From an uncultured Bacilli bacterium (GTDB lineage Bacteria; Bacillota_I; Bacilli_A; RF39; UBA660): 64,000 nucleotides of DNA. The notes beneath the pieces were generated by a model that had not been told where the DNA came from, made no database searches, and saw only the letters and a list, made by a program, of their open reading frames with translations. Positions 9,258-44,030 of this stretch are shown in pieces. Every line of letters starts with the position of its first letter. The first letter of the stretch is position 1. A program made the translations under genes and the position numbers. Location: assembly GCA_910587325.1 (NCBI GenBank), contig CAJUKB010000006.1, positions 831 through 64,830 of the forward strand, in the 5' to 3' direction.

Positions 9258-10187
9258 TTATGGTATTAATAATTTTTGGCCAATAGACAATGCACTCGTT
9301 GCTAAATTATTTAAGTTTTGAATAGCCGTTACAGTTGTATTAAAGTTTCTTGCAATGCTATACAAAGTATCCCCACTTTTTACGGTATAAGTTTGATAAC
9401 TTTCCATGTTTGGAATACGTAATCTTTGACCAATACTTAATAGGTTGCTTGTAAGATTATTCATACGTTTTAATTCATCTACTGTTGTTCCAAATTGATT
9501 GGCAATTTTATACAAGCTATCTCCTGATTTTACAACGTAGTATTCTTCACTTTCACTAGGTGTTGTACTTCCACTTACTTTAAGCACTTGGCCAATAGAC
9601 AAAGTATTACTGGTTAAGTTATTCATACGTTTTAATTCATCCACTGTAAGGCCATATCGATTGGCTATTCCATATAAAGTATCCCCACTTTTTACTATGT
9701 AGGTATCTTCACTAGGTGTAGTAGTACCCTCTTTTAATTTCAATACTTGACCAATAGATAAAGCATTGCTTGTTAAATTATTTAATTTTTTTAATTCATC
9801 CACTGTAAGGCCATTATTTCTAGCAATACTCCACAAAGTGTCTCCATTTTTCACAATGTATGTATTTTCAGTAGATACAGGAGTATAAGGTACACCAATA
9901 TATTCAGCAAGAGATTTTACAACCGCTTCTGCTAAACCTTCCCAATTGTTCTTTAGCTGACTTACATCATCCCCAGTACTATCTGCAAAACCATATTCCA
10001 CAATAATTGATTCGTTATTTGGAGTATTTCTTAAAATGTAATAATAATCTTGGTTTGGATTACTTGGTAATCTCCTTTGGTAATACTTGCGAACATTCTG
10101 CCCTGCTTTCGTAAAATTATCACTAATAATACTTGATAAACGATCACTATTACGTAAGGAGTAGATTACTTCCGCACCATCGCCACC
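9258..10187 (-). pseudogene. 3' fragment of a split cell-wall amidase gene (Amidase_3 C-terminal half + 4 LysM repeats), interrupted by the ICE
   Basis: Four LysM repeats (YxVKxGDTLxxIAxxxxxTVxxLxxxNNLTSN). Upstream of the GTG at 10001 the frame stays open to a TGA at 10188-10190 and reads GGDGAEVIYSLRNSD...ESIIVEYGFADSTGDD, the C-terminal half of an Amidase_3 fold. Confidence 0.7.
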
Positions 10188-10209
10188 TCAGGAGTGCCCT
10201 TATGTATAG
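10184..10209. repeat. Left ICE junction (attL-like): CACCTC crossover repeat, 8-nt spacer, 12-bp arm CCTTATGTATAG
   Basis: CACCTC at 10184-10189 recurs at 44025-44030. CCTTATGTATAG (10198-10209) is the exact reverse complement of 44005-44016. The recombinase stop codon is 4 nt away. Confidence 0.6.
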
Positions 10210-10213
10210 TAAT

Positions 10214-11896
10214 TTATCCTTTCTTCTTTTTTCGTGGTTTTACTTCTTTTCTACGAGAGAACGGTGGTTTCTCATATACAAATTCAGTCTTAGGAATAAC
10301 ATTAAATTTATATGTTATTTCTATTTTTCTATCATTATCTATGACTATTTTTTCTATTAACATATCATATATTTCTTTATTTGATTTTTTTAAATCTAAT
10401 AGTTCCTTTATCTTTTTTGTGTAATCTGGAATAACATTTGGTTTATTTTTAATTTGATATTTTTCTATCTGCTTTTGTTGAATAAGTTCATTAATTTTTT
10501 TTAGTTTTTCATCACATTCTTTTGAAAGTTCTTTATACATTTCAGCAGATATAATATCGTTGCATCTATCTTCATAGAGAATGGATAATTTTTTTGTTAT
10601 CTTGTTTTTTTCTGTTTCATATTGAGTTATTACTTTATCAATTTCATTAGTATTTTTATTGATTCTTTTAGCTACTTCATCATTTAATTCCTTAATATTT
10701 AATTTTTTTATATAAACATTAATATCATTATTTATTTTTTCAATCAGTTGTTTTTCTAAATGCTCATAAGGGAAATAATGAGTTCCGCATCTTTGTCTAA
10801 CAGGATCTCTAGAATATCTATTGCAATTAACACTCCAAACATCCGTTTTTTTATGATATTGAACAGATAATCTATTACCACATTCTTTACAAAAAAGCAT
10901 TCCTTCAAACATTCTTATTTCTCTATCTAATTTAGCTTTACATATTCTTGTATGACTTTTTTTAATATTTATACAATATTCAAAAGTTTCTTTATCTACT
11001 AATGCCTCATGTGTATCCTCAACAACTAACCAAAGTCTTTTATCTAGTGTTACTTTTTTCTTGGACTTATAATTAACCTTTGCTTGGGTATGCTGTATCA
11101 TATCTCCTGTATAAATCCTATTATCTAATATTTTCCTTACAGTAGATATATTCCACTTAGTTGCATCAATTAATCTTGATGAATATGCTGTTCCTTTATA
11201 TGCACTAGGTGTTGGCACTCCTTCATCATTTAATCTAGTTGCTATTTCAGAAGGACCGATTCCATCAACTCTCCATTTAAATATTTTTTTTACTATTGGA
11301 GCTGTTTCAGGATTAGGAATGAGATGTCCTTTATCATTAGGATCTCTCATATATCCATAACTTGGTAAACTACCAACAAATTTTCCCTTTTGCCTTTTTT
11401 CATTTAAAACATTTCTTATTTTTATTGAATTTTGTTTACTATAATAATCATTACATGCAATTATGAAAGTTGATGAATCATTACTTGCCTGATTTTTAAA
11501 GCTGTCATAAGATTCTAATATTGAAATAAATCTAATTTGATTTTCAGGAAAAAATGTTTCAATATAATATCCTGTCATAACATGGTCTCTACCTAATCTA
11601 GATAAGTCTTTTACAACAACACAATTTATTTTTTTGTTTTTTATATCTTCCATCATTTTTTGAAAACCAGGTCTGTCAAAATCAGTTCCAGAAAAACCAT
11701 CATCAACATATTCATTTACCAAATTAAAATTATGATTTTTAACATAATCTCTTAATAATTCTTTTTGATTAGCAACACTTTCACTATCAGATTCATATTT
11801 TTTGTCTTTGTCTCTATCTTCCTGAGATAATCTTATATATATCCCTACATTAAATTCAACATCAGTTAAGTAATTATTATTCATCTTTACCTCCAT
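10214..11896 (-). CDS. Large serine recombinase (resolvase catalytic domain + recombinase domain + zinc ribbon + coiled coil)
   Basis: N-terminal VGIYIRLSQEDRD (catalytic Ser) followed by VVVKDLSRLGRD. Central recombinase domain. Cys cluster CKECGNRL...CNRYSRD...CGTHYF. Sits at the element end. Confidence 0.9.
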   Translation of the reverse strand: MEVKMNNNYLTDVEFNVGIYIRLSQEDRDKDKKYESDSESVANQKELLRDYVKNHNFNLVNEYVDDGFSGTDFDRPGFQKMMEDIKNKKINCVVVKDLSRLGRDHVMTGYYIETFFPENQIRFISILESYDSFKNQASNDSSTFIIACNDYYSKQNSIKIRNVLNEKRQKGKFVGSLPSYGYMRDPNDKGHLIPNPETAPIVKKIFKWRVDGIGPSEIATRLNDEGVPTPSAYKGTAYSSRLIDATKWNISTVRKILDNRIYTGDMIQHTQAKVNYKSKKKVTLDKRLWLVVEDTHEALVDKETFEYCINIKKSHTRICKAKLDREIRMFEGMLFCKECGNRLSVQYHKKTDVWSVNCNRYSRDPVRQRCGTHYFPYEHLEKQLIEKINNDINVYIKKLNIKELNDEVAKRINKNTNEIDKVITQYETEKNKITKKLSILYEDRCNDIISAEMYKELSKECDEKLKKINELIQQKQIEKYQIKNKPNVIPDYTKKIKELLDLKKSNKEIYDMLIEKIVIDNDRKIEITYKFNVIPKTEFVYEKPPFSRRKEVKPRKKKKG

Positions 11897-12560
11897 TCCT
11901 AATTACTTGACCAATAATTAAGACAAGTGAATAATAACACTATATTAGAATTTAAACAAAACTGCGACAAAACTTTAACTGGTATTTTTATCACCTAATA
12001 TTTTTTCTATAAGATATCTCAAAATTAAATCTTCAAAAGATATTTTTTTATCATCATTCATATCTTTCACCATTATAAGATTATGCTACAAATACAATAT
12101 TATTTATAGAATATCTATCCTTTCATTAAGTGTTTCTAATCTATTTTTCTAAAGTTGAATCATTCATTTCATCAGACCACGATGCAACTTTGCAACAACA
12201 AAAAAGAAATAACATTACAAATGCTATTCCCAAAATTATTAATACAGATAACATTAATTCACCTTCTCTTCTTTTTTAGATTCGTAATCCATTATTTCTA
12301 ATTTAATATCAAAATCTCCATCTTTAAATAAGGATGATAAACCAGTATGTTTCTCCAATTCAATCATTAATGCATCTTTAATAATAGTTCTGACTCTTTT
12401 ATCTACATCAAATTTATTAGTTCCAGATTGTAAACCTGTACCCTCCAATATTAATTTATATTTTATTTTATATTCCCTCATAATTTAACCACAAAAAAAC
12501 ACATGTGTCCTATGTGTTTGATTTCCTTTCATAATATAAATTTGACTTTTTCCAATTTCA

Positions 12561-13019
12561 TCATATATCTTCTTTAAGGATGGCCATATTAAGTGCTAAA
12601 GCAAATTTAATAATACAACTTTTCTTAATATGTTTTAAAGTCTTATCTGCACATTGAAGTTGTTCTTCCATTATAAGTTCTGTATTTCCCATAAAGAAGA
12701 TTCCCTTAAAAAAGTGTTGTTCTTCCATAGTTAGATTATCTAGAACACTTAGTATTATATTTAAATATTCTAGAAAATCTTCTTCTTTTTCTATCTTCTT
12801 TAAAACATATCTCTCTACTGGTGAAGAGGTAAATCCTGATGATTGTACTTTAATCTCACTAAGATGAGATGTAATACTAGGTGGAAGTACACTAATATAT
12901 CTGAAATAATTTTCTTCAAATACTTCCATAAATTCATTTACCTTCGATCTTGTTTTTTGATAATCATATTTTTTAATTACTTCATTGCTCAATAATTTCA
13001 TAATGCCCTCCATAATCAA
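12561..13019 (-). CDS. Putative small transcriptional regulator (ArpU / sigma-70 region-4-like)
   Basis: 152 aa. Size, position in the ICE regulatory region and helical character are the only support; the family assignment is weak. Confidence 0.3.
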   Translation of the reverse strand: MIMEGIMKLLSNEVIKKYDYQKTRSKVNEFMEVFEENYFRYISVLPPSITSHLSEIKVQSSGFTSSPVERYVLKKIEKEEDFLEYLNIILSVLDNLTMEEQHFFKGIFFMGNTELIMEEQLQCADKTLKHIKKSCIIKFALALNMAILKEDI

Positions 13020-13353
13020 AAAAGAAGAGAATAAAAGCTATTTACTGCAATTACTTCTCTTCTTATAGTTATTTAGATTTAGGGGTGCTTTATCCTTATG
13101 AACATATTCATCCAAAAACATAATGATATGTTTGTTGAAAACAATTTGCACCATAATAATCATCCCCAAACCTCTAAACAAAACCATTAAATTGTTATTT
13201 ATTATATATTTTTTTTGGAAAAAGTCAATAACATTTAATGCAAAATAAAACAATCAGCAGTTCTCTTTTGCTAATTGTTTCATTTTACTATATTTTATCA
13301 TCTTGACTTTATTATTCAAGGGTATTTTTTGGGGTAAATTTGGGGGTACTTTT

Positions 13354-13668
13354 TTAAATTATACTTTTACATCTATTTACTATATTTTCAGGAGTATTAT
13401 TTTTAATAAAATCTACTAACTCTTCATAGTAATTAGTAGCATCTATAACATTTTTATATTTTTCTAATAGTAGTGGACTTGCAATCAAATCTTTATCTTT
13501 TATATATAAATAAACCTCGTAATCATTAGAATCAGTACACTCATTAAGCATTACACCAATGAAACCTTCCATGAAAGTATTTTGTGATGTCTTAAATATC
13601 GTTTTATCTTCTTTGATATTACTAATACAATATTTTTGTAAGTCTTGGATTATTTCTGATATATTCAT
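13354..13668 (-). CDS. Hypothetical protein
   Basis: 104-aa acidic ORF with no recognisable motifs. Confidence 0.3.
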   Translation of the reverse strand: MNISEIIQDLQKYCISNIKEDKTIFKTSQNTFMEGFIGVMLNECTDSNDYEVYLYIKDKDLIASPLLLEKYKNVIDATNYYEELVDFIKNNTPENIVNRCKSII

Positions 13669-13786
13669 TTGAACCTCCCATTAACTAAGTAAATAGTATT
13701 ATAACAAAATAACAATTTTAATCAATCCCAAATACCTAATTATTTCTTCATAATTATATTATAGCTTTTTTTCAAAATTATGTATA

Positions 13787-14494
13787 TTATTTTACATATT
13801 TTAATATACCTTTATTTTTATAATATGAATCTATTAATATTTCATAATGTATTTTCATTTCATTTATTACAAGGTAATATACTTCTAAAGGATTTTTATC
13901 TTTATTTTTTCTTTGAAATTTTTTAAGATTTAAATGAAAATTTTGAAATAAATATAAAGTAGAAAAATTATTAATGTTAGTCCATAAAAGACTTTTTAAA
14001 AATTTCATTACAGATTCTAAATCATCATTATTATCAAGATCTATGCTTTGTAAATTTTTTATAAATGGTCTAAATAAGGTCTTATCATCTATAAAGAGAA
14101 TTGTTTCATAAAAATTATTAACTATTGCTTTGTCCATACTATTAATAAAATATTGCATATTATTATTATCTCCCCAATATTTTTTACATAACAGAAATTC
14201 TGGAATTTGATTTTCAAGAATGAATTCTAGCATTAAATCTTTATGACATATTGTAGGAAATTTTGAATCAAAATAATAAATAAAATTATTTAGCATATCA
14301 ATAAATTGTTCATTTCCTGTTAGGTAACCTTTTTTGACTAAAGAAGTTACAATGGTGGGTGTTCTTTCATCCGTAATTAGATCTATTGCTTTATCCAATA
14401 TATTTTTATTAATTAGTTGATATATTCTTCCACCATTATCTGATTTTTTTAAAGCCAATTTTTTTAATTGATTCTTCCTTACTCTATTTTTCAT
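13787..14494 (-). CDS. Hypothetical protein, divergent from the XRE regulator gene
   Basis: 235 aa. No HExxH or other catalytic motif. Divergent promoter region shared with 14537..15022. Confidence 0.4.
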   Translation of the reverse strand: MKNRVRKNQLKKLALKKSDNGGRIYQLINKNILDKAIDLITDERTPTIVTSLVKKGYLTGNEQFIDMLNNFIYYFDSKFPTICHKDLMLEFILENQIPEFLLCKKYWGDNNNMQYFINSMDKAIVNNFYETILFIDDKTLFRPFIKNLQSIDLDNNDDLESVMKFLKSLLWTNINNFSTLYLFQNFHLNLKKFQRKNKDKNPLEVYYLVINEMKIHYEILIDSYYKNKGILKYVK

Positions 14495-14536
14495 TTAAAT
14501 CACCTGTTGAATATCATTATAGCATAATTTTACCAA

Positions 14537-15022
14537 ATGACCCATAGTTTTGCGAATATTATTCATTTTAATGGGAAAATTATACTGGTGAAAGATATGA
14601 ATGACAACAATTTAAAATTTTGTAGAGAAGAACTAGAAATGACACAATCAGAACTTGGTCTTGTCTTTGGAGTTACTGGATCGACGGTTGCTGGTTGGGA
14701 AAATGCACATGATACTATGCCACTTCCTAAATTAGTAAAGTTCTCTAATTTATACCATTATTCACTTGATTATGTAACAGGACTATCTAGAGATAATAAT
14801 TATTCCAAGATTGATAAAATAGATAAAAAGAAAATAGGTTGTAAATTAAGAAAAATTAGAAATGATTTAGGATTAACTCAACAGGAGATTGCTGATGAAT
14901 GCAAGATATCTCAAACAACATATAGTAATTATGAAACAGGACAATATCTAGTTACTTCATTAGTTCTATATACAATATGTAAAAAGCATAAGTTATCAAT
15001 GGATAAAATATTAACAGATTAA
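14537..15022 (+). CDS. XRE-family transcriptional regulator with two tandem HTH domains
   Basis: Two HTH_XRE units: MTQSELGLVFGVTGSTVAGWENAH and LGLTQQEIADECKISQTTYSNYETGQ. Confidence 0.75.
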   Translation: MTHSFANIIHFNGKIILVKDMNDNNLKFCREELEMTQSELGLVFGVTGSTVAGWENAHDTMPLPKLVKFSNLYHYSLDYVTGLSRDNNYSKIDKIDKKKIGCKLRKIRNDLGLTQQEIADECKISQTTYSNYETGQYLVTSLVLYTICKKHKLSMDKILTD

Positions 15023-15047
15023 AAGAGTGATAAATTTCACTCTTTTT

Positions 15048-18000
15048 TTAATTAGCATATTTTTTGAAATTTTCTGCTTGAGCAAGTACCTCTTCATACA
15101 CAACATCATTTGTTACTGGAGGATATCCAAATTCATCAAGTAAAATAATCAGATCTTGTTGAAGTTCAGCTTTAATATTATCTTTTTTAGACCAATCAGT
15201 ATATTTTGATTTATCTGATACAATTTCTTTAATTTTTTTAGATAATTCAATCATTTTTTCTTGTGGATATTCAAATCCATATTTTACTGAAACAGCAAAT
15301 AAAATATCTAAAAAAGCTTTTTCCTCAAAATCAATTCCTAGTGCTTTAAAACTATTTTTATCTTCTTCAAGGTCTTTCATTAAATTAGTTAGTTCATCTG
15401 AAACTTCTTCTAAAACATTCATAGCAAATTTTTCATCAGCAGATCTGTCATTATAACTATCAATTAAAGTTTGAAGCCTATCCATAAACTCTACACCTTT
15501 TATTTTATTTACTTTCTTATATTCTTCAATAGCTGATTTTAATAATCTTTGCAAAATTTTAATTTTGGTATTTGGCATATTTAATTTATCTAATTTTTTT
15601 AAATAATCTGTACTAAAGATATCTACTTCTCTCACCGTAAATTCTTTTTCTTCTTCAAAAAGTTCTTCTACCCCATCACTAATTAGAGCTTCTTGAATTA
15701 GTTGTCTAACCTTTTGATTCATCAAATCAATATCTGGAGCATCTCCTTTAGTAAGTTTAAAAATTATAGATCTAACAGCACCATAGAAATACATTTTATC
15801 TCTTTCTTCATTAGTTATTTCTTCGTTAGTTCCACAAATATTAAATGCAGATTTGAGATTTTTAGCTCCATACATAAATCTTCTTTCATCTTCTTCATTT
15901 TGTTGAATATATTCTGAAGCTTGATTCAAACAATTTAATCTTTCTACAGGAGTCCCATTAAAGAATTTTGAATTATCAAAATTTCTAAACAATCTATCAA
16001 TAATATCCATCTGATCTCTAAAAACTTTTATTGCTTCTTCTAATCCCTCAAATACAGATGAGTCTTCAGAATTAAATTTCTTTAATGCTAATTGCATTCT
16101 ATTTTTAATACCAATATAATCAACAATTAATCCTTTATCTTTTCCTGGATATTTTCTATTAACTCTAGAAATTGTTTGAATTAGTGTATGGTCTTGTAAT
16201 GGTTTATCAATATACATAGTATCAAGACTTGGAACATCAAAACCTGTAACCCACATATCAACAACAATAGCAATTTTGAAGTTGGATTTTTCATTTTTAA
16301 ATTGTTTATCAAGTTTTTTTCTATATGCTTTATTACCTAATAATTCATGAAGTTCTGGAACATCATTACTGTCCTCGGTCATAACCATATTAATTTTCGG
16401 AATTTCAAACAATTCATCTTGTTCTTTTTTGCTTAATTCATCAAAATTTTCTGCTTTCTTTGGAGTAGCCCAATCTGGTCTTAATTCTATTATAATTTTA
16501 TATAAATCATAAGCAATAAATCTATTCATGCAAACAATCATTGCTTTTCCGTTTACAGTAGCATTTTCAAATACCCTTTTTTCATAATGATTTATTATGT
16601 CCTCAGCAACTCTATGTAATACATCATGATCACCAACAATAACACTTAAATGAGTTGAAGCTTTTTTACTTTCTTCTATTTGATATTCATTTGCTCCTTC
16701 TTCAACACATAAATTATAATATTTTTCTACTTCTTTAATCTTTTCATCATCAAGAAGAACTTTAGCTGATCTTCCTTCATAAGTTATATTTACAGTAATT
16801 TCGTCTTTAACTGAATCTTTCATCGTGTATGCATCAACTATTTCTCCAAACACTTCCATTGTTGCATCTATAGGAGTACCAGAAAATCCAACATAGGTTG
16901 CATTTGGTAAAGAATCATGAAGATACTTTGCAAAACCATATTTCACCTTTACATCAATATCTGTAATTTTATAATTCTTATCAATATTGGTTTGACTTCT
17001 ATGAGCTTCATCTGAGATACAAACAATATTATTTCTATCACTTAATAGGTTAAAGTCTTCAGAGAATTTTTGAATTGTTGTCAAATATACTCCTCCACTT
17101 TCAGTTTCAGACAATATTCTTTTTAGTTCATCTCTTGTTTCAACTTTTTTAATAGTATTATCACCAATAAAATTTTTTGCATTTTCAAAAGTCTTAGCTA
17201 ATTGATCATCAAGATCTGTTCTATCAGTAATTAATATGATTGTCGGATTTTTTAAATCAATATCTTTCATTAAAAGTCTAGATAGATATAACATGGTATA
17301 ACTTTTACCAGATCCAGTTGCACCAAAATATGTTCCACCTTTCCCAGTTCCAATAGGTTTCATATTACTCTTTATACTTTCCAATAGACTTGTAGATGCA
17401 TAATATTGAGGATATCTACATACTATTTTCTCTTCATTTTGGGAATTGTCAGGAAAATATATAAAATTTCTTATTACATTTAATAATCTTTCTTTATTAA
17501 ACAATCCTAGAACCAATGTATGTAACGAATCTATTCCATCAGTCTCTTTAGATTTTTCATTAATTCTTCTCCACGCATAAAAATATTCATAATCTGAAAA
17601 GATAGAACCAATTTTATTATTTACACCATCACTTATAACACAAAAAGCATTATACTTAAAGATTGTTGGTATATCTCTTTTATATCTAATTGTCAATTGT
17701 TCGTAAGCATCATGAATTGTAGTATTTTCTTTAACAGCACTTTTAAATTCAAAAATAACAAGAGGAAGACCATTAATATAGATTATTCCATCTGGTATTC
17801 TTAAATGGTTCTCTTCAAATTCTAATTGATTAACTACTTTAAAATTGTTTTTATCAATTTCATTTTTAGAATAATTAATTAAATTAATATGTATATCCTT
17901 ATCATTGGGATTTTCTCTTTTAAAATCAAATCCATCAGATAAAATTTTTATGAATTTTTTATTTGCTTCATATATTGGATATTTTTCTAATGATTTAATA

Positions 18001-18194
18001 TCTTTAATAATAAAATTTGCTTCATTCATTGAAATATTATAATTTAATAATAAAAATTTTTTTAAATCTTCCTCTAAGATAAATTCGTTTTTTTCTTTAT
18101 GAAGTTCATCACCAACAAAATGATTATAACCATTAGCAGTTAATAAATCCATTATTGCCGATTCAAGAGTGGCTTCACTAAAACTACTTTTCAT
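15048..18194 (-). CDS. hsdR: Type I restriction enzyme, R subunit
   Basis: 1048 aa. Walker A GATGSGKSYTM, DEAH-box ISDEAHRS, helicase C-terminal domain, N-terminal HSDR_N-type nuclease region. Downstream of hsdM-hsdS. Confidence 0.9.
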   Translation of the reverse strand: MKSSFSEATLESAIMDLLTANGYNHFVGDELHKEKNEFILEEDLKKFLLLNYNISMNEANFIIKDIKSLEKYPIYEANKKFIKILSDGFDFKRENPNDKDIHINLINYSKNEIDKNNFKVVNQLEFEENHLRIPDGIIYINGLPLVIFEFKSAVKENTTIHDAYEQLTIRYKRDIPTIFKYNAFCVISDGVNNKIGSIFSDYEYFYAWRRINEKSKETDGIDSLHTLVLGLFNKERLLNVIRNFIYFPDNSQNEEKIVCRYPQYYASTSLLESIKSNMKPIGTGKGGTYFGATGSGKSYTMLYLSRLLMKDIDLKNPTIILITDRTDLDDQLAKTFENAKNFIGDNTIKKVETRDELKRILSETESGGVYLTTIQKFSEDFNLLSDRNNIVCISDEAHRSQTNIDKNYKITDIDVKVKYGFAKYLHDSLPNATYVGFSGTPIDATMEVFGEIVDAYTMKDSVKDEITVNITYEGRSAKVLLDDEKIKEVEKYYNLCVEEGANEYQIEESKKASTHLSVIVGDHDVLHRVAEDIINHYEKRVFENATVNGKAMIVCMNRFIAYDLYKIIIELRPDWATPKKAENFDELSKKEQDELFEIPKINMVMTEDSNDVPELHELLGNKAYRKKLDKQFKNEKSNFKIAIVVDMWVTGFDVPSLDTMYIDKPLQDHTLIQTISRVNRKYPGKDKGLIVDYIGIKNRMQLALKKFNSEDSSVFEGLEEAIKVFRDQMDIIDRLFRNFDNSKFFNGTPVERLNCLNQASEYIQQNEEDERRFMYGAKNLKSAFNICGTNEEITNEERDKMYFYGAVRSIIFKLTKGDAPDIDLMNQKVRQLIQEALISDGVEELFEEEKEFTVREVDIFSTDYLKKLDKLNMPNTKIKILQRLLKSAIEEYKKVNKIKGVEFMDRLQTLIDSYNDRSADEKFAMNVLEEVSDELTNLMKDLEEDKNSFKALGIDFEEKAFLDILFAVSVKYGFEYPQEKMIELSKKIKEIVSDKSKYTDWSKKDNIKAELQQDLIILLDEFGYPPVTNDVVYEEVLAQAENFKKYAN

Positions 18195-28937: not shown

Positions 28938-29155
28938 TTAATTGGTTTAGTTTAGACCATAGTTTTCAAAATTATTATTACTAATAATTTAAGAGCATAA
29001 GAAGTTGATATCAACACTTTAAATAAAGACTTATAAAATAAGACTTTAGTGTGATATCAAACATATTTTGCACTTGCAAAATGAATCCATTACTATGGTC
29101 TAAACTAATAAATAATCCCTTATATAATAAGGATTTTTTATGGTCTAAACTATGG
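28938..29155. promoter_or_regulatory. Candidate oriT / control region upstream of the relaxase operon: three copies of GGTCTAAACTA plus palindromes
   Basis: TAGTTTAGACCATAGTT (28938-54) is the reverse complement of ACTATGGTCTAAACTA (29091-106). A third, direct copy lies at 29139-55. A hairpin AATCCCTTATATAATAAGGATT lies between. The palindrome GTTGATATCAAC and TGATATCA lie upstream. Confidence 0.4.
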
Positions 29156-33442: not shown

Positions 33443-33720
33443 TCAACATCATCTCCAATCTTTGAGTAGGAATATTCCCTACATCTAAATAAATATCGAA
33501 ACAATAAAGCTACTACTTTATACATTCGATTCTTTTTTGAAACCTTAACTGGTAACATTAAAAAGACACATATTGTCAGATATACTAACGATTGTAGCTT
33601 TAAGTTAGTAAATGAAAATATAAGTAGAAAAGAAAACAACATAGGTAATCCTATGTATAAATCATTCATTTCAACATATTTTCCTAATGTTTTTTTAATA
33701 CTTGAAACCGTAATATACAT
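33409..33720 (-). CDS. Small membrane protein (VirB3/TcpE-like)
   Basis: 103 aa, two hydrophobic helices. Overlaps the virB4 start. Confidence 0.4.
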   Translation of the reverse strand: MYITVSSIKKTLGKYVEMNDLYIGLPMLFSFLLIFSFTNLKLQSLVYLTICVFLMLPVKVSKKNRMYKVVALLFRYLFRCREYSYSKIGDDVDWKDKLKMKRF

Positions 33721-35126: not shown

Positions 35127-35137
35127 TTAACCACCTC

Positions 35138-35416
35138 CTAGAACAAATCTATGATTAGATTGACTATTGAAATTGCAAGAATAATACCAACAATACCAAA
35201 CATAGTTTGAATTATTCTTTGTTTTACTCTAGGTTTTTGATCCACATCTACTACTGCATATAAAATAAAGCCAATAATTAATGATACACCTGCTGCTGCA
35301 ATTCCAATTCTTAAAGCCCATGTAGAAAATGTTTGTATAGCTTTGATAATTGAATCAACATTATATCCGCCACCTTCAAGATGTTCTATTTTTAATAAAT
35401 TAACCAATTTATTCAT
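35138..35416 (-). CDS. Small membrane protein (putative VirB2-like pilin/TcpD-like)
   Basis: 92 aa, two hydrophobic helices (IGIAAAGVSLIIGFILYAVV / FGIVGIILAISIVNLII). Confidence 0.35.
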   Translation of the reverse strand: MNKLVNLLKIEHLEGGGYNVDSIIKAIQTFSTWALRIGIAAAGVSLIIGFILYAVVDVDQKPRVKQRIIQTMFGIVGIILAISIVNLIIDLF

Positions 35417-35530: not shown

Positions 35531-35899
35531 TTACATATCTAAATCATCATCTGATTTTTCATTATCAGAATCTTTTTCTTTAGCTGTTGATAAAAAAGTC
35601 ACTTTTTCAGCTACAATTTGAGTTGATTTTTTCTTTTCACCATCAGCATTTTCATAAATATTAGTTTCAACTTTGCCTTTTACTCCAACTAAATCACCTT
35701 TTTTACAGTATTCTGCTGTATTAGAAGCAACTCCACCCCAAAGGACACAATCAACAAAATCTGTTTCATATTCTCCTTCAGCATTCTTGTAGCTTCTTGG
35801 AACTGCTAAAGTAACAAAAGCTCTTTCTTTACCTGATTCTGTTTTTTCAACAGTAGGTTCTTGAACTAATCTTCCGACAATAACAACTTGATTCAACAT
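35531..35899 (-). CDS. ssb: Single-stranded DNA-binding protein
   Basis: OB-fold N-terminus MLNQVVIVGRLVQEPTV...RAFVTLAV. Acidic C-terminal tail ...SDDDLDM. Confidence 0.8.
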   Translation of the reverse strand: MLNQVVIVGRLVQEPTVEKTESGKERAFVTLAVPRSYKNAEGEYETDFVDCVLWGGVASNTAEYCKKGDLVGVKGKVETNIYENADGEKKKSTQIVAEKVTFLSTAKEKDSDNEKSDDDLDM

Positions 35900-35986: not shown

Positions 35987-36208
35987 TCATTTGCCTCTTT
36001 CATCTGCATCACATAGTTGCACAATTGAATCCTCTATTTTTTCCCATAAAGTATCTAGATAGTCATAACACTTTTGAAAATTTTTAAATTCTTTAGAATC
36101 TAAATATTCCTTGAATGAATCCATATCAGATAAAACTAATCCAATATGTTCTTGAAATTCACTCATTGCCTCGACTTCTAACATTTTTAATTCTTCAAGC
36201 TTCTTCAC
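35987..36208 (-). CDS. Hypothetical protein
   Basis: 73-aa acidic ORF. Confidence 0.3.
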   Translation of the reverse strand: MKKLEELKMLEVEAMSEFQEHIGLVLSDMDSFKEYLDSKEFKNFQKCYDYLDTLWEKIEDSIVQLCDADERGK

Positions 36209-36966
36209 AAATCAATCTCCTCCATTTCATAATCATCTAACCAATCAAATTTATCATCAGAGTAAAGATCTTCTGAATAATTTTTAAATTTATTAATATT
36301 AGAAATAATTGAACTTTTAAAATAACCATATTTATTTTTAATTTCATTATCATTCTCATCAATAAAATTTCTTTCCTTTACTCTTTTGATAATATAATGT
36401 GTTATAGTTAATAAATCTTTATAAGTATTACCTTCATCAATAAGTTTTTCAAACAAATCATCAAATAAAAAAGAACTAGAATCATCTTCATTAATATAAT
36501 TAAGATTTATTAGCTCTTTAGTTAAAATATTGTGTTCAATTTTTGTTTTATCTATTTTATCTTTTTTATTATTGATATTTATTTGTGTGCAGTTATCGGT
36601 GTTCCGATCATCGGTATGCCAATTATTGATATCTGGATAATTTCTTGTTTTTAGCCATTCTGAATAAGGTAAATAATAAACCATATATTTATATTTAAAA
36701 TATCCTTTTTCATCTCTATACTGCTTTATTTGAACATATTCTGCCTTTTTTAATTCATTTAAAGTTGTCCTAATAGCATATTTACCTTCTTGTGATATTT
36801 TTTCAAGTCCACTTATAGAGTAATCCCAATCTTTAGACATAGATAACATCATAGAAAGCAAACCTTTAGCTTTAAATGATAAATTAGAATCCCTTAAATG
36901 ATAGTTTGACATAACAGTATATCCAGTAATACCAAAAACCTCAAAATCTCTTGTACTATCATTCAT
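36205..36966 (-). CDS. Possible RepA_N-like replication initiator / DNA-binding protein
   Basis: The N-terminal 90 aa (YHLRDSNLSFKAKGLLSMMLSMSKDWDYSISGLEKISQEGKYAIRTTLNELKKAEYV) resemble the winged-helix RepA_N domain pattern. The rest is low complexity. Confidence 0.35.
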   Translation of the reverse strand: MNDSTRDFEVFGITGYTVMSNYHLRDSNLSFKAKGLLSMMLSMSKDWDYSISGLEKISQEGKYAIRTTLNELKKAEYVQIKQYRDEKGYFKYKYMVYYLPYSEWLKTRNYPDINNWHTDDRNTDNCTQININNKKDKIDKTKIEHNILTKELINLNYINEDDSSSFLFDDLFEKLIDEGNTYKDLLTITHYIIKRVKERNFIDENDNEIKNKYGYFKSSIISNINKFKNYSEDLYSDDKFDWLDDYEMEEIDL

Positions 36967-37897: not shown

Positions 37898-38518
37898 TTA
37901 AGACTCTAATTCACAAATTATTACTATTTGCTTTTTAGTATTATGTCTACAAGTAATTAATGTAAGTGTGCTTTTGTTTTTATCTCTAATTATTTCTGCT
38001 TTACCAGTTTTCTCTATATCATAGATATCAGTTACTTTATATGAATATACTTTATTATTATAATTAATATAAACCATGTCTTCTAAAGTTAACTTATCTA
38101 GGTTTCTAAAATAAGATATTCTTGCACTACCAGAATGTCCAGCCAAAATGACATTTCCATTTTTTTGATCAGGCATCGAAGATCCTTTTACGATTTCTAC
38201 ATTGTAATTAATATTGTTTAAATAACTATTTGGATTTACTAGACCTCTTTCTAAATTAATTTTAGGGATTTTAAGTACAGCAATATATTCTATTTTTGTT
38301 TGCTCTTTCACTTCTTCTTTTTCTTGAGTATCTTCAGTAAAATTTTCAATATTGACCACTGTTTCATTTTTGTAAAAATCATTTAAAGCATTATCCTCTA
38401 TATCTTTAATGTTTTTATTAGATAAGTAATCGTAACTAATTAAAGAGACTCCTATTAAAAATAGGAAAGAGCCGATTACTATAAACCAGCTCTTATTTTT
38501 TATTTTTCTTTTTACCAT
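37898..38518 (-). CDS. Sortase (cysteine transpeptidase)
   Basis: N-terminal TM anchor. His motif ILAGHSG. Catalytic TLxTC motif (STLTLITCRHN). Its start overlaps the adhesin stop by 26 nt. Confidence 0.8.
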   Translation of the reverse strand: MVKRKIKNKSWFIVIGSFLFLIGVSLISYDYLSNKNIKDIEDNALNDFYKNETVVNIENFTEDTQEKEEVKEQTKIEYIAVLKIPKINLERGLVNPNSYLNNINYNVEIVKGSSMPDQKNGNVILAGHSGSARISYFRNLDKLTLEDMVYINYNNKVYSYKVTDIYDIEKTGKAEIIRDKNKSTLTLITCRHNTKKQIVIICELES

Positions 38519-41207
38519 ATATAATAATACCTGTTCCTAAAGCAATCAAACCAATTCCACTAATTAAAAGTTCTTTATAATCAGATGCATCGGTATTTGG
38601 TACTTCTACAATTTGATGGTCTTTCATAACAGATTTAACTATTTCTCCATCTTCTTTAATTTCAAAATACATTTTTTCTGGATTTATCTCATAGCCTTCT
38701 GGTGCTTCTTTTTCTAAAATATAATACTTACCATACTTTAATTCTTTAATAGTAATCTTTCCATTTTCATCAGTTCTTCCACTAAATACAAGTTCATCGT
38801 TTTCGTTATAGATTTCTATTAGTGTATTTGGTAATGGATTATCATTTGAAAAATCTAATTTTGAAAATTCTAATGTCCCAGTAATGTCCTCATCTTTCAT
38901 AGTTGATTTAACTATTTCTCCATTTTCTTTAATTTCAAAGTACATTTTTTCTTCATTAATTTTATAACCCTCTGGTGCTTCTTTTTCCAAAATATAGTAT
39001 TTTCCTACAGGTAATTCATCAATAACTATTTTTCCTTCAATATCTGTTTTACCAGAGAATATTAGCTCATCAGTTTCAGTATAAATCTCAATTAAAGTGT
39101 TAGGTAATGCCTTTGATTCTGATAAATCAGTCTTAGTAAATTCTAATTTACCCTTCTTTAAATAATTAACTTTGCTTAATGTTTCATATACTATTGGAGT
39201 TTTATTATCTTTTTCAGTTAATTTAAACTCATGTCTAGTTATATCTAATACATAATTATCTTTAGTTTTCACTTCAATCATATAGTAAGATCCTAAAGGT
39301 AATTTTTTACTTATAGCATAACCATCTTTATTTGTAGTAATAGTATCTACTAATTGATCTTTTTTATAATATAAAGTATTGCCATCAGATGATAATATAT
39401 CTTCTTTAGCATAGATATTAAATGTTACTTTATCTAAAGGAATAAATTCATATTCAATTGTATTATCTACAATAACTACCTTCTCACCTTTTTTATTAAC
39501 TTCAATTTGTCCTTTTATTGGAGTATCTTTAAATGTTACCTCAACAATTGCTCCATAAGTAGTATAAGTATAATGAGTATCATTGCCTAAAGTGAATTCT
39601 ACTCCATCAGCATTTATTAGATATCCTTTTGGTGATGTAATTTCTACAATTTTATAATGTCCTGCTTCTAATTTTAAGAAAGTCATGGATTTACCTGTTT
39701 CATCAGTTACAAATTTATCATATACTTTTCCACCTACATATTGAGATACATATTGATTAGTATCTGTATTTAATATTCTAAATGTGGTATTAGGTAATGC
39801 AATAGATTTACCTGTCTCAGAATCTACCTTTTTTATTTGAACATAAGCAGATAATTTATTATTAAGAATATTATAATAGTGTTCTTTTGGGCTATCGTAA
39901 TTTACTGTTATATAGAAATCATGAATTTTTTCAAATCCAACAGTTGTATTTACTTGATGAAATTTCCAAGTACCATACGCTAAATCAAAAGAAGCATAGC
40001 CACTTTTATCAGTAGTAACAGTTTTTAGTACTCTTCCATCTGGATAAGATATTTCAAATTTGATTCCCTGTTCAGCATTTAAGAAAGTAGTATTTCCATC
40101 TACATACTCATATTGTTTTAAGATGCTTATATGATTTTCAACTACATCTTCAGTAACATTCATTGAAACTTCTGCTCTACCTTTAATATCAAAATTATAT
40201 TTAGTTGTATCTAAATAATAACCTTCTGATGGACTTATCTCTTGTAAGTAATAAGATCCATAACTCAATACATTGTTACTTTTAGCATAACCATTTTCAT
40301 CAGTAGTAATTCTAGTTACTTCAGTACCATCAGTTCTATATACACCATATACAGCTCCCTTTAAAGTTGCTTGTCCTTGTGCTTTCTCAGTAATACTATC
40401 TGCTTTTACCATATCTACACTTCCTAAATAAGCCTTTACTTTAAAACTTGCTACAACTGGATCTACAGTACCTGGTACAATCATATTTTGAATTTCATTT
40501 CCAGAATAAATTTTATATTCACTATCGTATGGCATTATTTTAGTAAGTCTAACATTTATATCACCATTTATTGTTGGAGTAATATTTAATTTATTACCTT
40601 CTACAGAATAATTTGCTCCTGTAACTGAAACATTATAATTACTTAATACATTATTTGTATCAGTAAGAGTAAATGTTTCTCCAACTTGATATGTATAATT
40701 TCCACCATTAAATGATGGTTTAACATAATGATTAGCAATTAATCTTTCTATCTCTCTTTCTTCATTAGAAACATCAAATCTAGTTCCAGCTCCCCATCTT
40801 TCTGTAGAAAAATCTGTATGACCATTATGTCCTACAATCGTACTCCATAAAAGACCTTGTGTAGCTGCTCTATATTTTAATGTATTATGTCCTGGATATG
40901 TATAACCATAATATGCTAGTAAAAGAACCCTTTCTTTAATATCATTTGGTAGTCCTGTGGCTTCATAACTTGTTTGAGGATAAGTTGTACCTTCAGGAAC
41001 ATTTGGTTCAATACAGTAAGCTATTTTCCCATCCATAGTATACAATTGCCAGTACCATGAAGAATTATTACCAACATCATTAAATCTATTATAATAATAT
41101 CCAGATTTTTCTTTTACTAAAGTTGCAGCATGTACATTAGTTGTAGTAAATCCACAAGCTAACAATAATGCTACAGCAAATAAAATTCTCTTAATGTTTT
41201 TTTGCAT
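38493..41207 (-). CDS. ICE-encoded surface adhesin: signal peptide, thioester domain (YCIEP...TQGLLW), multiple Cna-B repeats, VPNTD sorting-like signal + TM + KKKNKK
   Basis: 904 aa. Paralogous to the 416..2527 protein, with clear C-terminal identity (LPN(T/V)LIEIYNE...TDENGKI). Thioester Cys/Gln signature. Probable substrate of the adjacent sortase. Confidence 0.75.
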   Translation of the reverse strand: MQKNIKRILFAVALLLACGFTTTNVHAATLVKEKSGYYYNRFNDVGNNSSWYWQLYTMDGKIAYCIEPNVPEGTTYPQTSYEATGLPNDIKERVLLLAYYGYTYPGHNTLKYRAATQGLLWSTIVGHNGHTDFSTERWGAGTRFDVSNEEREIERLIANHYVKPSFNGGNYTYQVGETFTLTDTNNVLSNYNVSVTGANYSVEGNKLNITPTINGDINVRLTKIMPYDSEYKIYSGNEIQNMIVPGTVDPVVASFKVKAYLGSVDMVKADSITEKAQGQATLKGAVYGVYRTDGTEVTRITTDENGYAKSNNVLSYGSYYLQEISPSEGYYLDTTKYNFDIKGRAEVSMNVTEDVVENHISILKQYEYVDGNTTFLNAEQGIKFEISYPDGRVLKTVTTDKSGYASFDLAYGTWKFHQVNTTVGFEKIHDFYITVNYDSPKEHYYNILNNKLSAYVQIKKVDSETGKSIALPNTTFRILNTDTNQYVSQYVGGKVYDKFVTDETGKSMTFLKLEAGHYKIVEITSPKGYLINADGVEFTLGNDTHYTYTTYGAIVEVTFKDTPIKGQIEVNKKGEKVVIVDNTIEYEFIPLDKVTFNIYAKEDILSSDGNTLYYKKDQLVDTITTNKDGYAISKKLPLGSYYMIEVKTKDNYVLDITRHEFKLTEKDNKTPIVYETLSKVNYLKKGKLEFTKTDLSESKALPNTLIEIYTETDELIFSGKTDIEGKIVIDELPVGKYYILEKEAPEGYKINEEKMYFEIKENGEIVKSTMKDEDITGTLEFSKLDFSNDNPLPNTLIEIYNENDELVFSGRTDENGKITIKELKYGKYYILEKEAPEGYEINPEKMYFEIKEDGEIVKSVMKDHQIVEVPNTDASDYKELLISGIGLIALGTGIIIYGKKKNKK

Positions 41208-41259
41208 TTTTTCCTCCTATATTAATTCATAAAAAAACACCATTTAAGGTGCTAAAAAA

Positions 41260-41913: not shown

Positions 41914-41945
41914 TATATATTGAAGTTATAAGTAATTCTAAGGTG

Positions 41946-42878
41946 CTACATATCTAAATCATAGGCATCACCCCTTTCAAGTTTTTTATCTTTAGAATAA
42001 TTAATTAAAGCATTTATAATGTACTGTTCTATATACCTTTTATCCTTTTTTAATAATTCAGAAGGGAGTACATCTTCTATTCTTTTCTTATTAAATGAAA
42101 TTTGTTCTTTTTGATTTCCTTTTTCTTCACTTAATATTTCATCTAAAATTTCTTCATTTAATTTATTTTGTTCTTCTAACTTTCTAATTTCAATAGCTTG
42201 AGCATGAGAAGGAGTTGCTTGATTGTAATCAATGGCATCTGCTACTAACTGTTGATTAGCTGTTGATAAAAAAGATAATTCTACAGCTGGTTTTATACCT
42301 ATTGTTAATGGTTCATTTCTATTAAGAACAGTTTTATCTACATACTCTAATAACTCTGGAATCAAATAAGTAAGTCTAATATATCTTTTTATATTCGTAG
42401 CACTTTCTCCAAATTCTAAGCCTATTTTTTCTACAGAATTTAACTTTAGTTCCTGAGGGTCCAAAGTATCAATTTTTTTGCCTTGATGTTTCATTGCCTC
42501 TAATTTCATCTTGTAAGCAAATGCTTTTTCACTTGGTAAAACTAATTCTCTTTGCAAATTAGAATCTACCATTTCAATAATAGCTTGATCATTAGTTAAT
42601 TCCTTTACTACAGCAGGTATTGTTTTTTCATTATTTTGTTTCATAGCTAACAATCGTCTATGCCCAGAAATCATTTCATATCTACCATCTTCTTTTTTTC
42701 TTAAAACTACTGGATTTAATAATCCATTATTTTTAATACTTTGCCTTAATTCAAAAAAACTTAAATCCTCATTTACTTTAAATGGATGATTTTTAAAACT
42801 GTCTATTAAAGATATATCTATATCTTTTATTTGATTTTGACCCTTTGCCATAAGTTCCTCCTTCCTATTTTTGTCCAC
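41946..42878 (-). CDS. ParB/Srx-like nuclease-domain protein (ICE partition or transfer accessory)
   Basis: N-terminal ParB box LLNPVVLRKKEDGRYEMISGHRRLLA (GHRR arginine finger region). Helical C-terminal part. Confidence 0.7.
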   Translation of the reverse strand: MDKNRKEELMAKGQNQIKDIDISLIDSFKNHPFKVNEDLSFFELRQSIKNNGLLNPVVLRKKEDGRYEMISGHRRLLAMKQNNEKTIPAVVKELTNDQAIIEMVDSNLQRELVLPSEKAFAYKMKLEAMKHQGKKIDTLDPQELKLNSVEKIGLEFGESATNIKRYIRLTYLIPELLEYVDKTVLNRNEPLTIGIKPAVELSFLSTANQQLVADAIDYNQATPSHAQAIEIRKLEEQNKLNEEILDEILSEEKGNQKEQISFNKKRIEDVLPSELLKKDKRYIEQYIINALINYSKDKKLERGDAYDLDM

Positions 42879-42909
42879 AAAAAAACACCAATTAAGGTGC
42901 TAACATTTT

Positions 42910-43512
42910 TTATTTTGTTTCAATTTGTCTTTTTATAGCATTATATCTATTGTGCCACCATGTTGCATTATCATTTGCCTCATCTATTTCTGCTTGTAAA
43001 TTTAAAATATAATCTAAAAATTCATAGCATTCACTATGCTCTAAATAAAAATCACAATCTTCCTTAACACTTCTTTTTAATTCTTCTAAAATCTCTAATT
43101 GCCTCTTTGCATATAAGTCAATTTCATCAATATCAGATTCTGTTGTTCTTTCATTCTCATATAATTCATAATAATTAAATTTACATTTTTTCCAAATATC
43201 TTCGATTTCATATTCTATTTCATCTAAATCCATACATTCTATTGCATATATTTTAGTTTTAACCCAAAATTTATCTTTTTGTGTTACTAAAATAAATTCA
43301 TAATTATAACTATCATTTAGTTCATATTCATATACATCAATATAATATTTGACTCCTTTATTATCTTTGATTTTCTTTTGAAAAAATCTATTTGCATATT
43401 GTTCTGTTTTTGGAACATCTGATTCCTTATATCCTGCATTTATCAATACTTTATCTGTCATAAATATCTTCCTCCTATTTATTGTTTTTATAAACAATGT
43501 CTGAAAATTCAA
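42910..43512 (-). CDS. Hypothetical protein
   Basis: 200-aa ORF, acidic, no motifs. Confidence 0.35.
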   Translation of the reverse strand: MNFQTLFIKTINRRKIFMTDKVLINAGYKESDVPKTEQYANRFFQKKIKDNKGVKYYIDVYEYELNDSYNYEFILVTQKDKFWVKTKIYAIECMDLDEIEYEIEDIWKKCKFNYYELYENERTTESDIDEIDLYAKRQLEILEELKRSVKEDCDFYLEHSECYEFLDYILNLQAEIDEANDNATWWHNRYNAIKRQIETK

Positions 43513-43894
43513 AAATTCTTTTGCAACTATGACAAGCTATTGCAGTTATATCACATCCAATTATTGATTCTCCATCTCCTTTTATTAGAGATATACTAAG
43601 TGACTTACAAATTGGACATTTTATACTATTTTGAGATAGCACCTCACTTTGCTTTAAATTACTTTTTATGATCTCAAAGTCTTCCATTGTAATTTTGGCT
43701 AATTTTCTTATATAAGATAATTCAATATAATCATTAGGATTTCCAATTCTTTTCATATATTCAGTTCCACCATCTACAGCTACCGATTTACAACTACAAT
43801 ATTTTAAATCATTAACATCAGTGGATTCTATAATATCCTCACATTTTTTACATTTAATTTTATTATGTTTAATTTTAAATACTATTTCCTGCAT
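43475..43894 (-). CDS. Zinc-ribbon hypothetical protein
   Basis: 139 aa with four CxxC pairs (CKKCED, CSCKS, CPICKS, CHSCKR). Confidence 0.4.
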   Translation of the reverse strand: MQEIVFKIKHNKIKCKKCEDIIESTDVNDLKYCSCKSVAVDGGTEYMKRIGNPNDYIELSYIRKLAKITMEDFEIIKSNLKQSEVLSQNSIKCPICKSLSISLIKGDGESIIGCDITAIACHSCKRIFEFSDIVYKNNK

Positions 43895-44004
43895 AATTTC
43901 TCTCCATACATTGCATTATACATAATTTATAAATTACTTAAAAAGGTGCAAAATAAAAACTAGCTACATTAAATATAACTAGCATATCCTAATATTGGTC
44001 AAAA

Positions 44005-44030
44005 CTATACATAAGGAAACCTTTCACCTC
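44005..44030. repeat. Right ICE junction (attR-like): 12-bp arm CTATACATAAGG, 8-nt spacer, CACCTC crossover repeat
   Basis: Mirror image of the left junction. The arm is the exact reverse complement of 10198-10209. Confidence 0.6.

Follow-up and report, generated by a model that had tools for sequence, protein, structure and literature searches.

Several elements insert into the coding sequence of a host gene by means of a large serine recombinase encoded at one of their ends and restore the reading frame on precise excision, the described cases being SPbeta (recombinase SprA) in spsM and skin (SpoIVCA) in sigK, as well as vfbin, vrin and gin (Abe et al., PMC4191935, PMC5499854, PMC5595907). 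Recombinases of the same family also serve the conjugative or mobilisable elements Tn5397 (TndX) and Tn4451 (TnpX) of low-GC Gram-positive bacteria, for which a circular intermediate is known, and many distant recombinases can share one conserved coding attachment site (attB), e.g. that in ComM/Mg-chelatase or prolyl isomerase (Durrant et al. 2022, PMC10083194). The present study concerns a stretch of 64,000 nucleotides from an uncultured Bacilli bacterium (contig CAJUKB010000006.1), designated here at its full length as the window, in which positions 10188-44028 are taken, with a probability of about 0.88, to be an integrative and conjugative element (ICE) inserted by its own large serine recombinase into a chromosomal gene for an amidase consisting of an Amidase_3 domain and four LysM repeats. 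Related loci used for comparison are referred to by numbers with the prefix L.

The amidase gene is found in two fragments, one at each end of the insert, and the features by which the insertion is defined are as follows:

9258-10187, minus strand: amidase 3' fragment, running from GGDGAEV to the stop codon; C-terminal part of Amidase_3 with the EYGF glutamate, and four LysM repeats (translation; Pfam on the fused open reading frame)
10156-10217: left junction (attR in gene orientation); host B' half-site, core CACCTC at 10184-89, P arm CCTTATGTATAG at 10198-209, probable crossover at CC 10186-87
10214-11896, minus strand: large serine recombinase, 560 amino acids; Resolvase, Recombinase and Zn_ribbon_recom domains (Pfam)
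43997-44058: right junction (attL in gene orientation); P' arm CTATACATAAGG at 44005-16, core CACCTC at 44025-30, host B half-site, probable crossover at CC 44027-28
44026-44298, minus strand: amidase 5' fragment, MSIRATKK to NHINAGG, 91 codons; GHGG and HINA motifs

The two copies of CACCTC, at 10184-10189 and 44025-44030, are spaced by 33,841 bp and form a direct repeat of exactly 6 bp that does not extend either way. At each end, 8 nucleotides inside the element, there is one of two inverted arms, the sequence at 44005-44016 being the exact reverse complement of that at 10198-10209; for a 12-nucleotide inverted repeat in one fixed register the calculated probability of a chance occurrence is ~6e-7 at 26.6% GC. 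An earlier note, made from the sequence of the window, had placed both the hexamers and the arms at these coordinates and the stop codon of the recombinase 4 nucleotides from the left arm, and all of this proved correct to the base. It had also proposed that the spacing would fuse the two fragments in frame, and this was confirmed by deleting the element together with one copy of the core, which leaves a single open frame across the junction (...NHINAGGGDGAEV... / ...VSNHINAGGGDGAEVIYS...). The rebuilt open reading frame (ORF), read from the ATG at 44298, encodes 399 amino acids, with an Amidase_3 domain (Pfam, E 8e-28, residues 9-183) followed by four LysM repeats (E 2e-71). This ATG is probably the real start of the amidase, to judge from a ribosome-binding site (GAGGTG) upstream and from the intact orthologues, which start at the matching position (MSIRATKK); the N-terminal boundary given earlier, the GTG at 44334, would thus be just a mechanical ORF start. 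In the interrupted gene, the truncated N-terminal ORF ends with a stop codon at 44005-44007, i.e. inside the right arm, and a search of the window for a second copy of the amidase found none.

The empty site is present in related strains. A protein search with the rebuilt amidase retrieved relatives of 76-99% identity that are uninterrupted at the junction and align across it without a gap. The most informative of them is locus L001 from a near-identical strain, with flanks 99.4% identical to the window at the nucleotide level (the 3' fragment of the amidase taken separately also being 99.4% identical to its uninterrupted counterpart): it aligns to positions 44256-44025 and 10189-6433, the overlap of these alignments being the 6-bp core and nothing more. 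The junction of the empty site in L001 reads AATGCAGGAGGTGGCGATGGTGCG, which is precisely the attB sequence that had been predicted, and the same sequence occurs in L002 and L005; the gene is uninterrupted at the HINAGG site in L092 and L093, too. The uninterrupted loci therefore break from the window exactly at the CACCTC core. The rebuilt ORF aligns contiguously with intact Amidase_3 proteins, its catalytic domain running through the junction in alignments with the structures 5J72 (C. difficile Cwp6) and 7TJ4 (S. aureus LytH). Since the rebuilt frame is open and matches the uninterrupted L001, the expectation that precise excision would restore an intact Amidase_3-LysM gene is well supported.

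Concerning the recombinase, its assignment to the large serine family, already made in the earlier note, rests on all three diagnostic domains recognised by Pfam: the catalytic domain (PF00239, E 9e-24, residues 19-172), in which the stretch GIYIRLSQED, read from the translation, agrees with the YxRxS context of the nucleophilic serine, and, in the C-terminal region, PF07508 (E 2e-23) and the zinc ribbon PF13408 (E 1e-9). The nearest solved structures are the catalytic domain of TnpX (the best PDB match, E 2e-26) and SPbeta SprA, aligned at full length over residues 16-539. Pfam finds no DUF4368 in it, this domain being the mark of the TndX-like clade of multi-targeting recombinases (PMC10083194).

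A scan of one genome per species—a set from which the window's own genome is absent—gave 267 matches to the recombinase, the best 80 of which (65-99% identity) were examined as loci. All 80 come from metagenome-assembled genomes (MAGs) of uncultured gut bacteria named 'Bacilli', 'Tenericutes', 'Mycoplasma sp. CAG' or 'Firmicutes CAG', with human, mouse, rabbit and goat as host animals. In 70 of them an amidase 3' fragment follows downstream of the recombinase on the same strand and starts at exactly the same glycine codon, the amidases themselves being 47-97% identical; eight of the remaining ten offer too little downstream sequence, and the other two (L027 and L047), with 6 kb of flank, are considered below. 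The recombinase clade thus uses one codon of the amidase family across species. In the host half of the junction there is hardly any variation at codon positions 1 and 2, in contrast to a free position 3, so attB is held constant by the protein motif NAGG-G(D/E)GAE. The arms on the element side, for their part, form groups that follow the subclades of the recombinase. It should be noted that the amidase closest to that of the window (97%, L022) is accompanied by a different recombinase allele (70%), and that the same recombinase (99%) is found in a different species at L006.

The position of the exchange can be narrowed within the core. The first two host bases are GG in 70/70 junctions, the preceding two being variable (CA in 24, GA in 25, GT in 17, others in 4). 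Six complete elements have both ends available, namely those of the window, L068, L049, L031, L071 and L062, spanning 3.2-33.8 kb; the stretches common to their attL and attR are GAGGTG, AGGTGGCGA, GGTG, AGGTG, GGTGG and GGT, i.e. 3-9 bp, and only GGT is common to all six. The dyad symmetry of the attP of the window is best with GG as its centre (18/30 in comparison with at most 11/30 for any other centre), and it amounts to 19-22/30 in the same register in the other five elements. The symmetry of attB is low (7-10/30), as is usual for sites of serine recombinases. With GG invariant in all the junctions, GGT shared by the six elements and the attP dyad centred on GG, the exchange most likely takes place at the central GG of the gene strand (CC at 10186-87 and 44027-28), within the codon of Gly91, and the other four bases of CACCTC are identical incidentally. 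The earlier identification of CACCTC as the att core therefore stands as far as the resolution of the sites to the base pair is concerned, the exchanged bases being most likely the central GG rather than the whole hexamer; the interpretation of the inverted arms as two half-sites of attP agrees with the dyad, whose centre falls on the midpoint of the 6-bp core. On the circle, the rebuilt attP junction would read ...CTATACATAAGGGCACTCCTGAGGTGAAAGGTTTCCTTATGTATAG....

The element encodes, in addition to the recombinase, the components listed below, so that an integrase, att junctions and type IV secretion genes occur together, in keeping with its earlier designation as an ICE:

12254-15022: recombinase-proximal module with an ORF of 75 amino acids, an ArpU-like regulator (12561-13019), ORFs of 104 and 235 amino acids and a double-helix-turn-helix regulator of the Xre type (14537-15022, plus strand) (Pfam, NCBIfam)
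15048-18194, 18194-19321 and 19308-20885, minus strand: hsdR, hsdS and hsdM of a type I restriction-modification system; defence cargo (Pfam)
21144-21818, minus strand: AbiTii; defence cargo (Pfam)
21881-23992, minus strand: type IV coupling protein of the VirD4/TraG type (Pfam T4SS-DNA_transf, E 1e-65; NCBIfam conju_CD1115, 304 bits, above the cut-off of 250)
25553-26719, minus strand: protein with a Ser/Thr kinase domain; cargo (Pfam Pkinase, E 5e-28)
26748-28121, minus strand: putative relaxase, MobA/VirD2-like (Pfam Relaxase, PF03432, 23.5 bits, cut-off 24.6)
29150-30088, minus strand: M23 peptidoglycan hydrolase (Pfam)
30125-30904, minus strand: HEPN-domain protein; cargo (Pfam)
30980-33442, minus strand: VirB4-like ATPase (Pfam P-loop_TraG/DUF87; NCBIfam Mbov_0397 mycoplasma-ICE ATPase, 501 bits, cut-off 590)
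within 30980-35416, minus strand: small membrane ORF; together with the VirB4-like, VirB6-like and pilin-like proteins it makes up the mating-pore core
33720-35126, minus strand: VirB6-like polytopic membrane protein (Pfam; NCBIfam MMCAP2_0566/Mbov_0396, below the cut-off, 52 against 70)
35138-35416, minus strand: pilin-like protein of the type IV secretion system (Pfam)
35531-35899, minus strand: single-stranded DNA-binding protein, SSB (Pfam)
36205-36966, minus strand: HTH_36 protein (Pfam)
37898-38518, minus strand: sortase (Pfam)
38493-41207, minus strand: thioester/SpaA surface adhesin (Pfam)
41946-42878, minus strand: ParB-like protein (Pfam)
43475-43894, minus strand: DUF7695 protein (Pfam)

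All the listed ORFs, including those for conjugation and the recombinase, are open. The putative relaxase contains LHTDQDNLHFHL, read from the translation, which fits the histidine motif HxDx5HxH. The best plasmid matches of the VirB4-like and VirB6-like proteins are from Spiroplasma, at ~26% identity, and the coupling protein belongs to the CD1115 family of C. difficile; the transfer module, with its mycoplasma-ICE-like VirB4 and VirB6, is thus a mosaic. No transposase family was matched by Pfam among the ORFs of the element. Two repeats were also seen within the ICE, i.e. an inverted one of 49 nucleotides (76%; 12030-12078 and 14580-14628), lying over the start regions of the Xre-type regulator and of a small ORF situated upstream of the recombinase, and a direct one of 41 nucleotides (85%; 41215-41255 and 42863-42903), with a hairpin after two ICE genes; both may be shared regulatory or terminator elements. 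The chromosome of the window encodes, at 416-2527, another thioester/SpaA adhesin, paralogous to that of the ICE (34% identity in the C-terminal 300 amino acids).

The element appears to be mobile, or to have been so until recently, as suggested by the comparison of the loci. Within the species of the window, with flanks more than 99% identical, the site occurs in three states: filled with this ICE, filled with another element having a recombinase of 529 amino acids that is 50% identical (L004), and empty (L001). Both fragments of the amidase are 99-100% identical to intact alleles, without any decay. At L006, the recombinase is 99% and the adjoining module 94-99% identical to those of the window, the amidase and the neighbouring hydrolase gene being only 62% and 73% identical, respectively; a near-identical module beside diverged host genes means that the module has crossed species. 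In L009-L011, the module of the ArpU-like regulator and the ORFs of 104 and 235 amino acids (window 12254-14494) is 93-99% identical and the recombinase only 78%, which points to module shuffling, the integration module having been swapped by recombination. In the small elements of the clade, the ORFs between the recombinase and the junction either match no family or have HEPN or DUF matches. The smallest one, of 3.2 kb (L062 4700-7887), has the recombinase and ORFs of 109 and 188 amino acids without a family match and sits at the same codon; gin of B. cereus is a comparably minimal element.

The course of events that would account for these observations may be outlined as follows. The recombinase would pair an attP of ~50 bp on the circle, an imperfect palindrome CTATACATAAGG...GG...CCTTATGTATAG, with an attB formed by the codons of the conserved motif HINAGG/GDGAEV, and staggered cuts at the central GG would be followed by rotation of subunits and rejoining. 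The amidase would be left as two inactive pieces, the 5' one ending six codons into the element and the 3' one, with the catalytic EYGF region and the wall-binding repeats, having no start codon. Excision would be performed by the same recombinase, presumably together with a directionality factor, regenerating attP on the circle and restoring the gene without a scar; after nicking by the relaxase, the circle would pass to a recipient through the type IV secretion system of the element. The attachment site has probably been selected because the constraint on the protein freezes codon positions 1 and 2, and the frozen codons would offer a dependable landing site even in hosts with amidases only ~50% identical.

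The same gene has a second attachment site, unoccupied in the window, where the insertions listed here were recorded:

44245-44268, minus strand: second attachment site of the window, codons DSGHGGTD; homology to the occupied loci stops at 44256, within DSG/HGG
L001, 1-1062: insertion at DSG/HGG
L002, 4573-6206: insertion at DSG/HGG
L003: insertion at DSG/HGG
L031, 1-1335: insertion at DSG/HGG
L089, 4014-6000: insertion at DSG/HGG
L091: insertion at DSG/HGG

The recombinase found at this site belongs to a second clade; it has 532-533 amino acids, is 34% identical to that of the window, shows a weak DUF4368 match and ends just upstream of the amidase. Where the DSG/HGG site is filled, the closest relatives of the amidase carry a foreign N-terminus (MGNSVSSHGG...), gene callers reporting false starts at such loci (MGNSVSS... 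or MIIWTFPI...). Of the ten closest protein clusters that were examined, the amidase is fully intact in three, begins with the foreign N-terminus, the mark of a filled DSG/HGG site, in six and is split at the other site in one; the presence of the recombinase was checked directly on contigs for three of the six (P0001, P0004 and P0011). In L031 (1-9300) both sites are filled by unrelated recombinases, and the amidase is in three pieces. Since the GHGG and HxNA motifs of Amidase_3 carry zinc-binding histidines, both landing pads lie on the most constrained DNA of the gene. The insertion at DSG/HGG recurs in at least three species, although DUF4368 enzymes are usually multi-targeting (PMC10083194).

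Several results weigh against a functional ICE with a single target. The circular attP junction, with both arms around the core, had no match in the JGI metagenome contigs, these organisms being so rare in that collection that the scan is uninformative. As for a directionality factor, no small ORF beside the recombinase is conserved across the clade, those present being conserved only in the closest relatives. The putative relaxase falls just under the Pfam cut-off and has no NCBIfam match, and the NCBIfam scores of the VirB4-like and VirB6-like proteins do not reach the cut-offs of the families matched best. Finally, L027 and L047 have no amidase fragment in their downstream flank of 6 kb, so that the use of this site is not proven for every member of the clade.

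A proposal that would add to the ICE reading rather than compete with it, and that we regard as rather unlikely, is that the amidase represents a 'regulated gene integrity' locus of these reduced-genome gut Bacilli. The protein would be a late lysis amidase resembling CwlC of B. subtilis, transcribed from a sigmaK-type promoter and needed only in a terminal cell, such as the sporulating mother cell or a lysing subpopulation; its gene would be split in the germ line by two unrelated recombinase clades and rebuilt in the terminal cell by excision under a developmental directionality factor, the copy in the forespore staying occupied, as in the case of skin/sigK and SPbeta/spsM. The architecture of the amidase fits, for it has no signal peptide and its catalytic domain, beginning at residue 9, precedes the wall-binding repeats; CwlC likewise has an N-terminal catalytic domain and then wall-binding repeats. 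In addition, each of the four closest orthologues has, at -44 to -46, a match to the consensus of B. subtilis sigmaK, AC-N17-CATAnnnTA, with a varying spacer and surroundings:

Window, 44299-44345, minus strand: upstream region of the amidase with AC-N17-CATATTTTA, sigmaK-like; a lead only
L005, 1286-1330: sigmaK-like motif
L092, 5956-6000: sigmaK-like motif
L093, 2955-3000: sigmaK-like motif

The motif is kept in L093 even though the upstream region is otherwise unalignable, the background in these genomes being 2.5% of the upstream regions of ORFs. A sigma-70 promoter for the amidase was rejected, as the matches upstream of the gene are at the level of chance (10 found, 7.3 expected) and are not conserved in orthologues, and this absence of a sigma-70 signal above chance is in line with the proposal. 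The same applies to the constant neighbourhood of a gene for a CwlJ-like Hydrolase_2 protein of 140 amino acids and to the very frequent interruption of the amidase by the two recombinase clades, each at its own site, from which it would seem dispensable in vegetative cells. The related uncultured orders of Bacilli to which these MAGs probably belong are predicted to include spore formers, sporulation ability being mixed among them (Field et al., PMC10868615).

Against the proposal, the window holds no spo or sig genes, and neither a directionality factor nor a sporulation promoter was found in the element. The sigmaK-like motif, a short one noticed post hoc in DNA rich in A and T, is lacking in the paralogues and in the orthologues at a greater distance (L062 and L071). 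NCBIfam recognises no sporulation amidase equivalog, neither CwlC nor CwlD (CwlD 69 bits, cut-off 222). Moreover, transfer of an ICE depends on excision in cells that stay alive, a requirement that a defective prophage does not have. In some genomes, there is an intact paralogue nearby: an Amidase_3 gene, 45-54% identical and convergent, lies on the minus strand ~2-3 kb downstream of the split gene in L016, L063, L065, L073 and L084, so that the tolerance of the interruption could be due simply to redundancy. The comparison with skin and SPbeta is, for this element, only an analogy so far. If the proposal were true, a developmental switch could take the form of a whole ICE as well as of a minimal 3-kb cassette, and this type of switch would be recorded for the first time in bacteria other than Bacillus and Clostridium and on a conjugative element.

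It is very unlikely that the insert is a fixed, immobile remnant and the amidase simply a dead gene of the lineage. The missing circular junction in the JGI contigs, the lack of a directionality factor among the ORFs beside the recombinase and the weak relaxase call would suit such a remnant, yet it would hardly be expected to retain intact conjugation and recombinase ORFs, perfect 12-mers in both att arms and amidase fragments without decay, nor to share its site with empty or otherwise filled states in strains with flanks of >99% identity and its recombinase module, 99% identical, with another species.

That the insert is a prophage or phage-like element is considered highly improbable. Its ArpU-like regulator is typical of phages (NCBIfam), the recombinase family is common in them, and one relative sits on a contig filed in IMG/VR; the idea was nevertheless rejected, since no capsid, portal, terminase, tail or holin family was matched by Pfam in the ~40 ORFs of the element. 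There is, instead, a full set of type IV secretion components, no phage recombinase in INPHARED reaches 36% identity to that of the element, and the visible part of the IMG/VR relative (L086) contains restriction-modification, HEPN and HerA-like genes and no virion genes. Another IMG/VR contig, L087 (UViG_3300019378_002407), encodes at 3469-7403 a coupling protein 61% identical to that of the ICE beside a recombinase 54% identical, and no amidase fragment was found over a distance of 8 kb; the contig probably represents an ICE that has another target and was wrongly filed as viral. Junctions produced by faulty assembly or binning into a chimeric contig, a concern in so far as the relatives are MAGs, which can be chimeric, are scarcely credible when both junctions fit a single recombination event to the base and the same geometry is seen in 70 assemblies made independently, in various studies and from various host animals.

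As for the surroundings of the split gene, an islet between the amidase and the CwlJ-like Hydrolase_2 gene (window 7025-9102; L002 7507-11143) has a variable defence content: AbiGi/AbiGii in the window, L001 and L004, MTaX1 with a C5 methylase in L002, and an ORF of 355 amino acids in L089; it is empty in L005, L092 and L093. The possibility that the amidase is a phage endolysin carried by another mobile element was rejected, the arrangement of the amidase and the CwlJ-like gene being conserved across species (62-99% identity) and phage genes being absent nearby. Positions 50452-63807 of the window cover the region of the replication origin, with dnaA, rnpA, yidC, jag, mnmE, mnmG, rsmG and parB, the ICE being located ~18 kb from dnaA. 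The ParB homologue of this region, of 628 amino acids, has an acidic low-complexity tail of ~400 amino acids, and there is no parA/soj gene alongside.

Based on the above results, the ICE of the window is a clean, fresh case of a familiar type of mobile element, without a new mechanism, since gene-splitting elements with serine recombinases, conjugative transposons with serine recombinases and shared coding attB sites are all known. Less usual are the two landing pads in one gene, the use of one integration module by elements as small as 3-kb cassettes and as large as a 34-kb ICE, and the mycoplasma-ICE-like transfer system in walled relatives of mycoplasmas. The ~70 natural attB/attP pairs, with a mapped GG crossover and with arms co-varying with the enzyme, offer ready material both for work on site recognition by serine integrases and for new orthogonal integration tools. 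A single host gene offers two independent landing pads on its two most conserved catalytic motifs, and one module moves small cassettes as well as a large ICE with defence genes. The element also points to an active route of gene exchange, by means of conjugation genes akin to those of mycoplasma ICEs, in the uncultured orders of Bacilli that stand between walled Firmicutes and Mycoplasmatales.

A target in Amidase_3 is absent from the main text of PMC10083194 and was not found in the searchable part of the supplementary tables of the survey of regulated gene integrity; likewise, the searchable literature yielded no relevant report of a serine recombinase targeting Amidase_3, cwlC or N-acetylmuramoyl-alanine amidase. 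The clusters of Durrant et al. nevertheless offer a close parallel, with one conserved coding site used across hosts with diverged target proteins, here by recombinases 65-99% identical and by a relative at 50%; a difference from those clusters is that the gene has another of its motifs targeted here as well, by an unrelated recombinase clade.

The skin/SPbeta-type elements are matched by the ICE of the window in the position of the recombinase at one end, in the insertion into a coding sequence that precise excision would restore, in the similarity of the recombinase to SprA, and in the spread of sizes, from minimal cassettes to tens of kb (gin and SPbeta) in the one case and 3.2-33.8 kb in the other. 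They are, however, prophages or remnants in proven sporulation genes of the mother cell, excised by means of a sporulation-controlled directionality factor, whereas here a type IV secretion ICE occupies a predicted amidase gene; should its excision be regulated, the skin/SPbeta paradigm would gain a further gene and group of hosts, and would come to include a conjugative element. In Tn5397, the transfer module is of the Tn916 type, the crossover is GA and the choice of targets is looser, so that the present ICE, similar in being a conjugative element of low-GC Gram-positive bacteria with a large serine recombinase, differs from it by another type of transfer module, by the GG crossover and by the restriction to a single codon of one gene family, and from the TndX-like clade by the lack of DUF4368. 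Mycoplasma ICEs use a DDE transposase and integrate nearly at random. The VirB4-like and VirB6-like proteins of the window match Mbov_0397 and Mbov_0396 best, although below the cut-offs for equivalogs, and its hosts are uncultured relatives of Mycoplasmatales; in contrast to the mycoplasma ICEs, integration here is specific to one codon and served by a serine recombinase, no transposase being matched, and the cargo includes wall-related genes (M23 hydrolase, sortase and LPXTG-type adhesin) that wall-less hosts would not need. Finally, the Listeria phages A118/phi10403S in comK ('active lysogeny') also have a serine integrase that splits a host gene, and their reversible excision can restore its function without loss of the element; these are phages with experimentally shown regulated excision, and the element described here is an ICE with a predicted excision.

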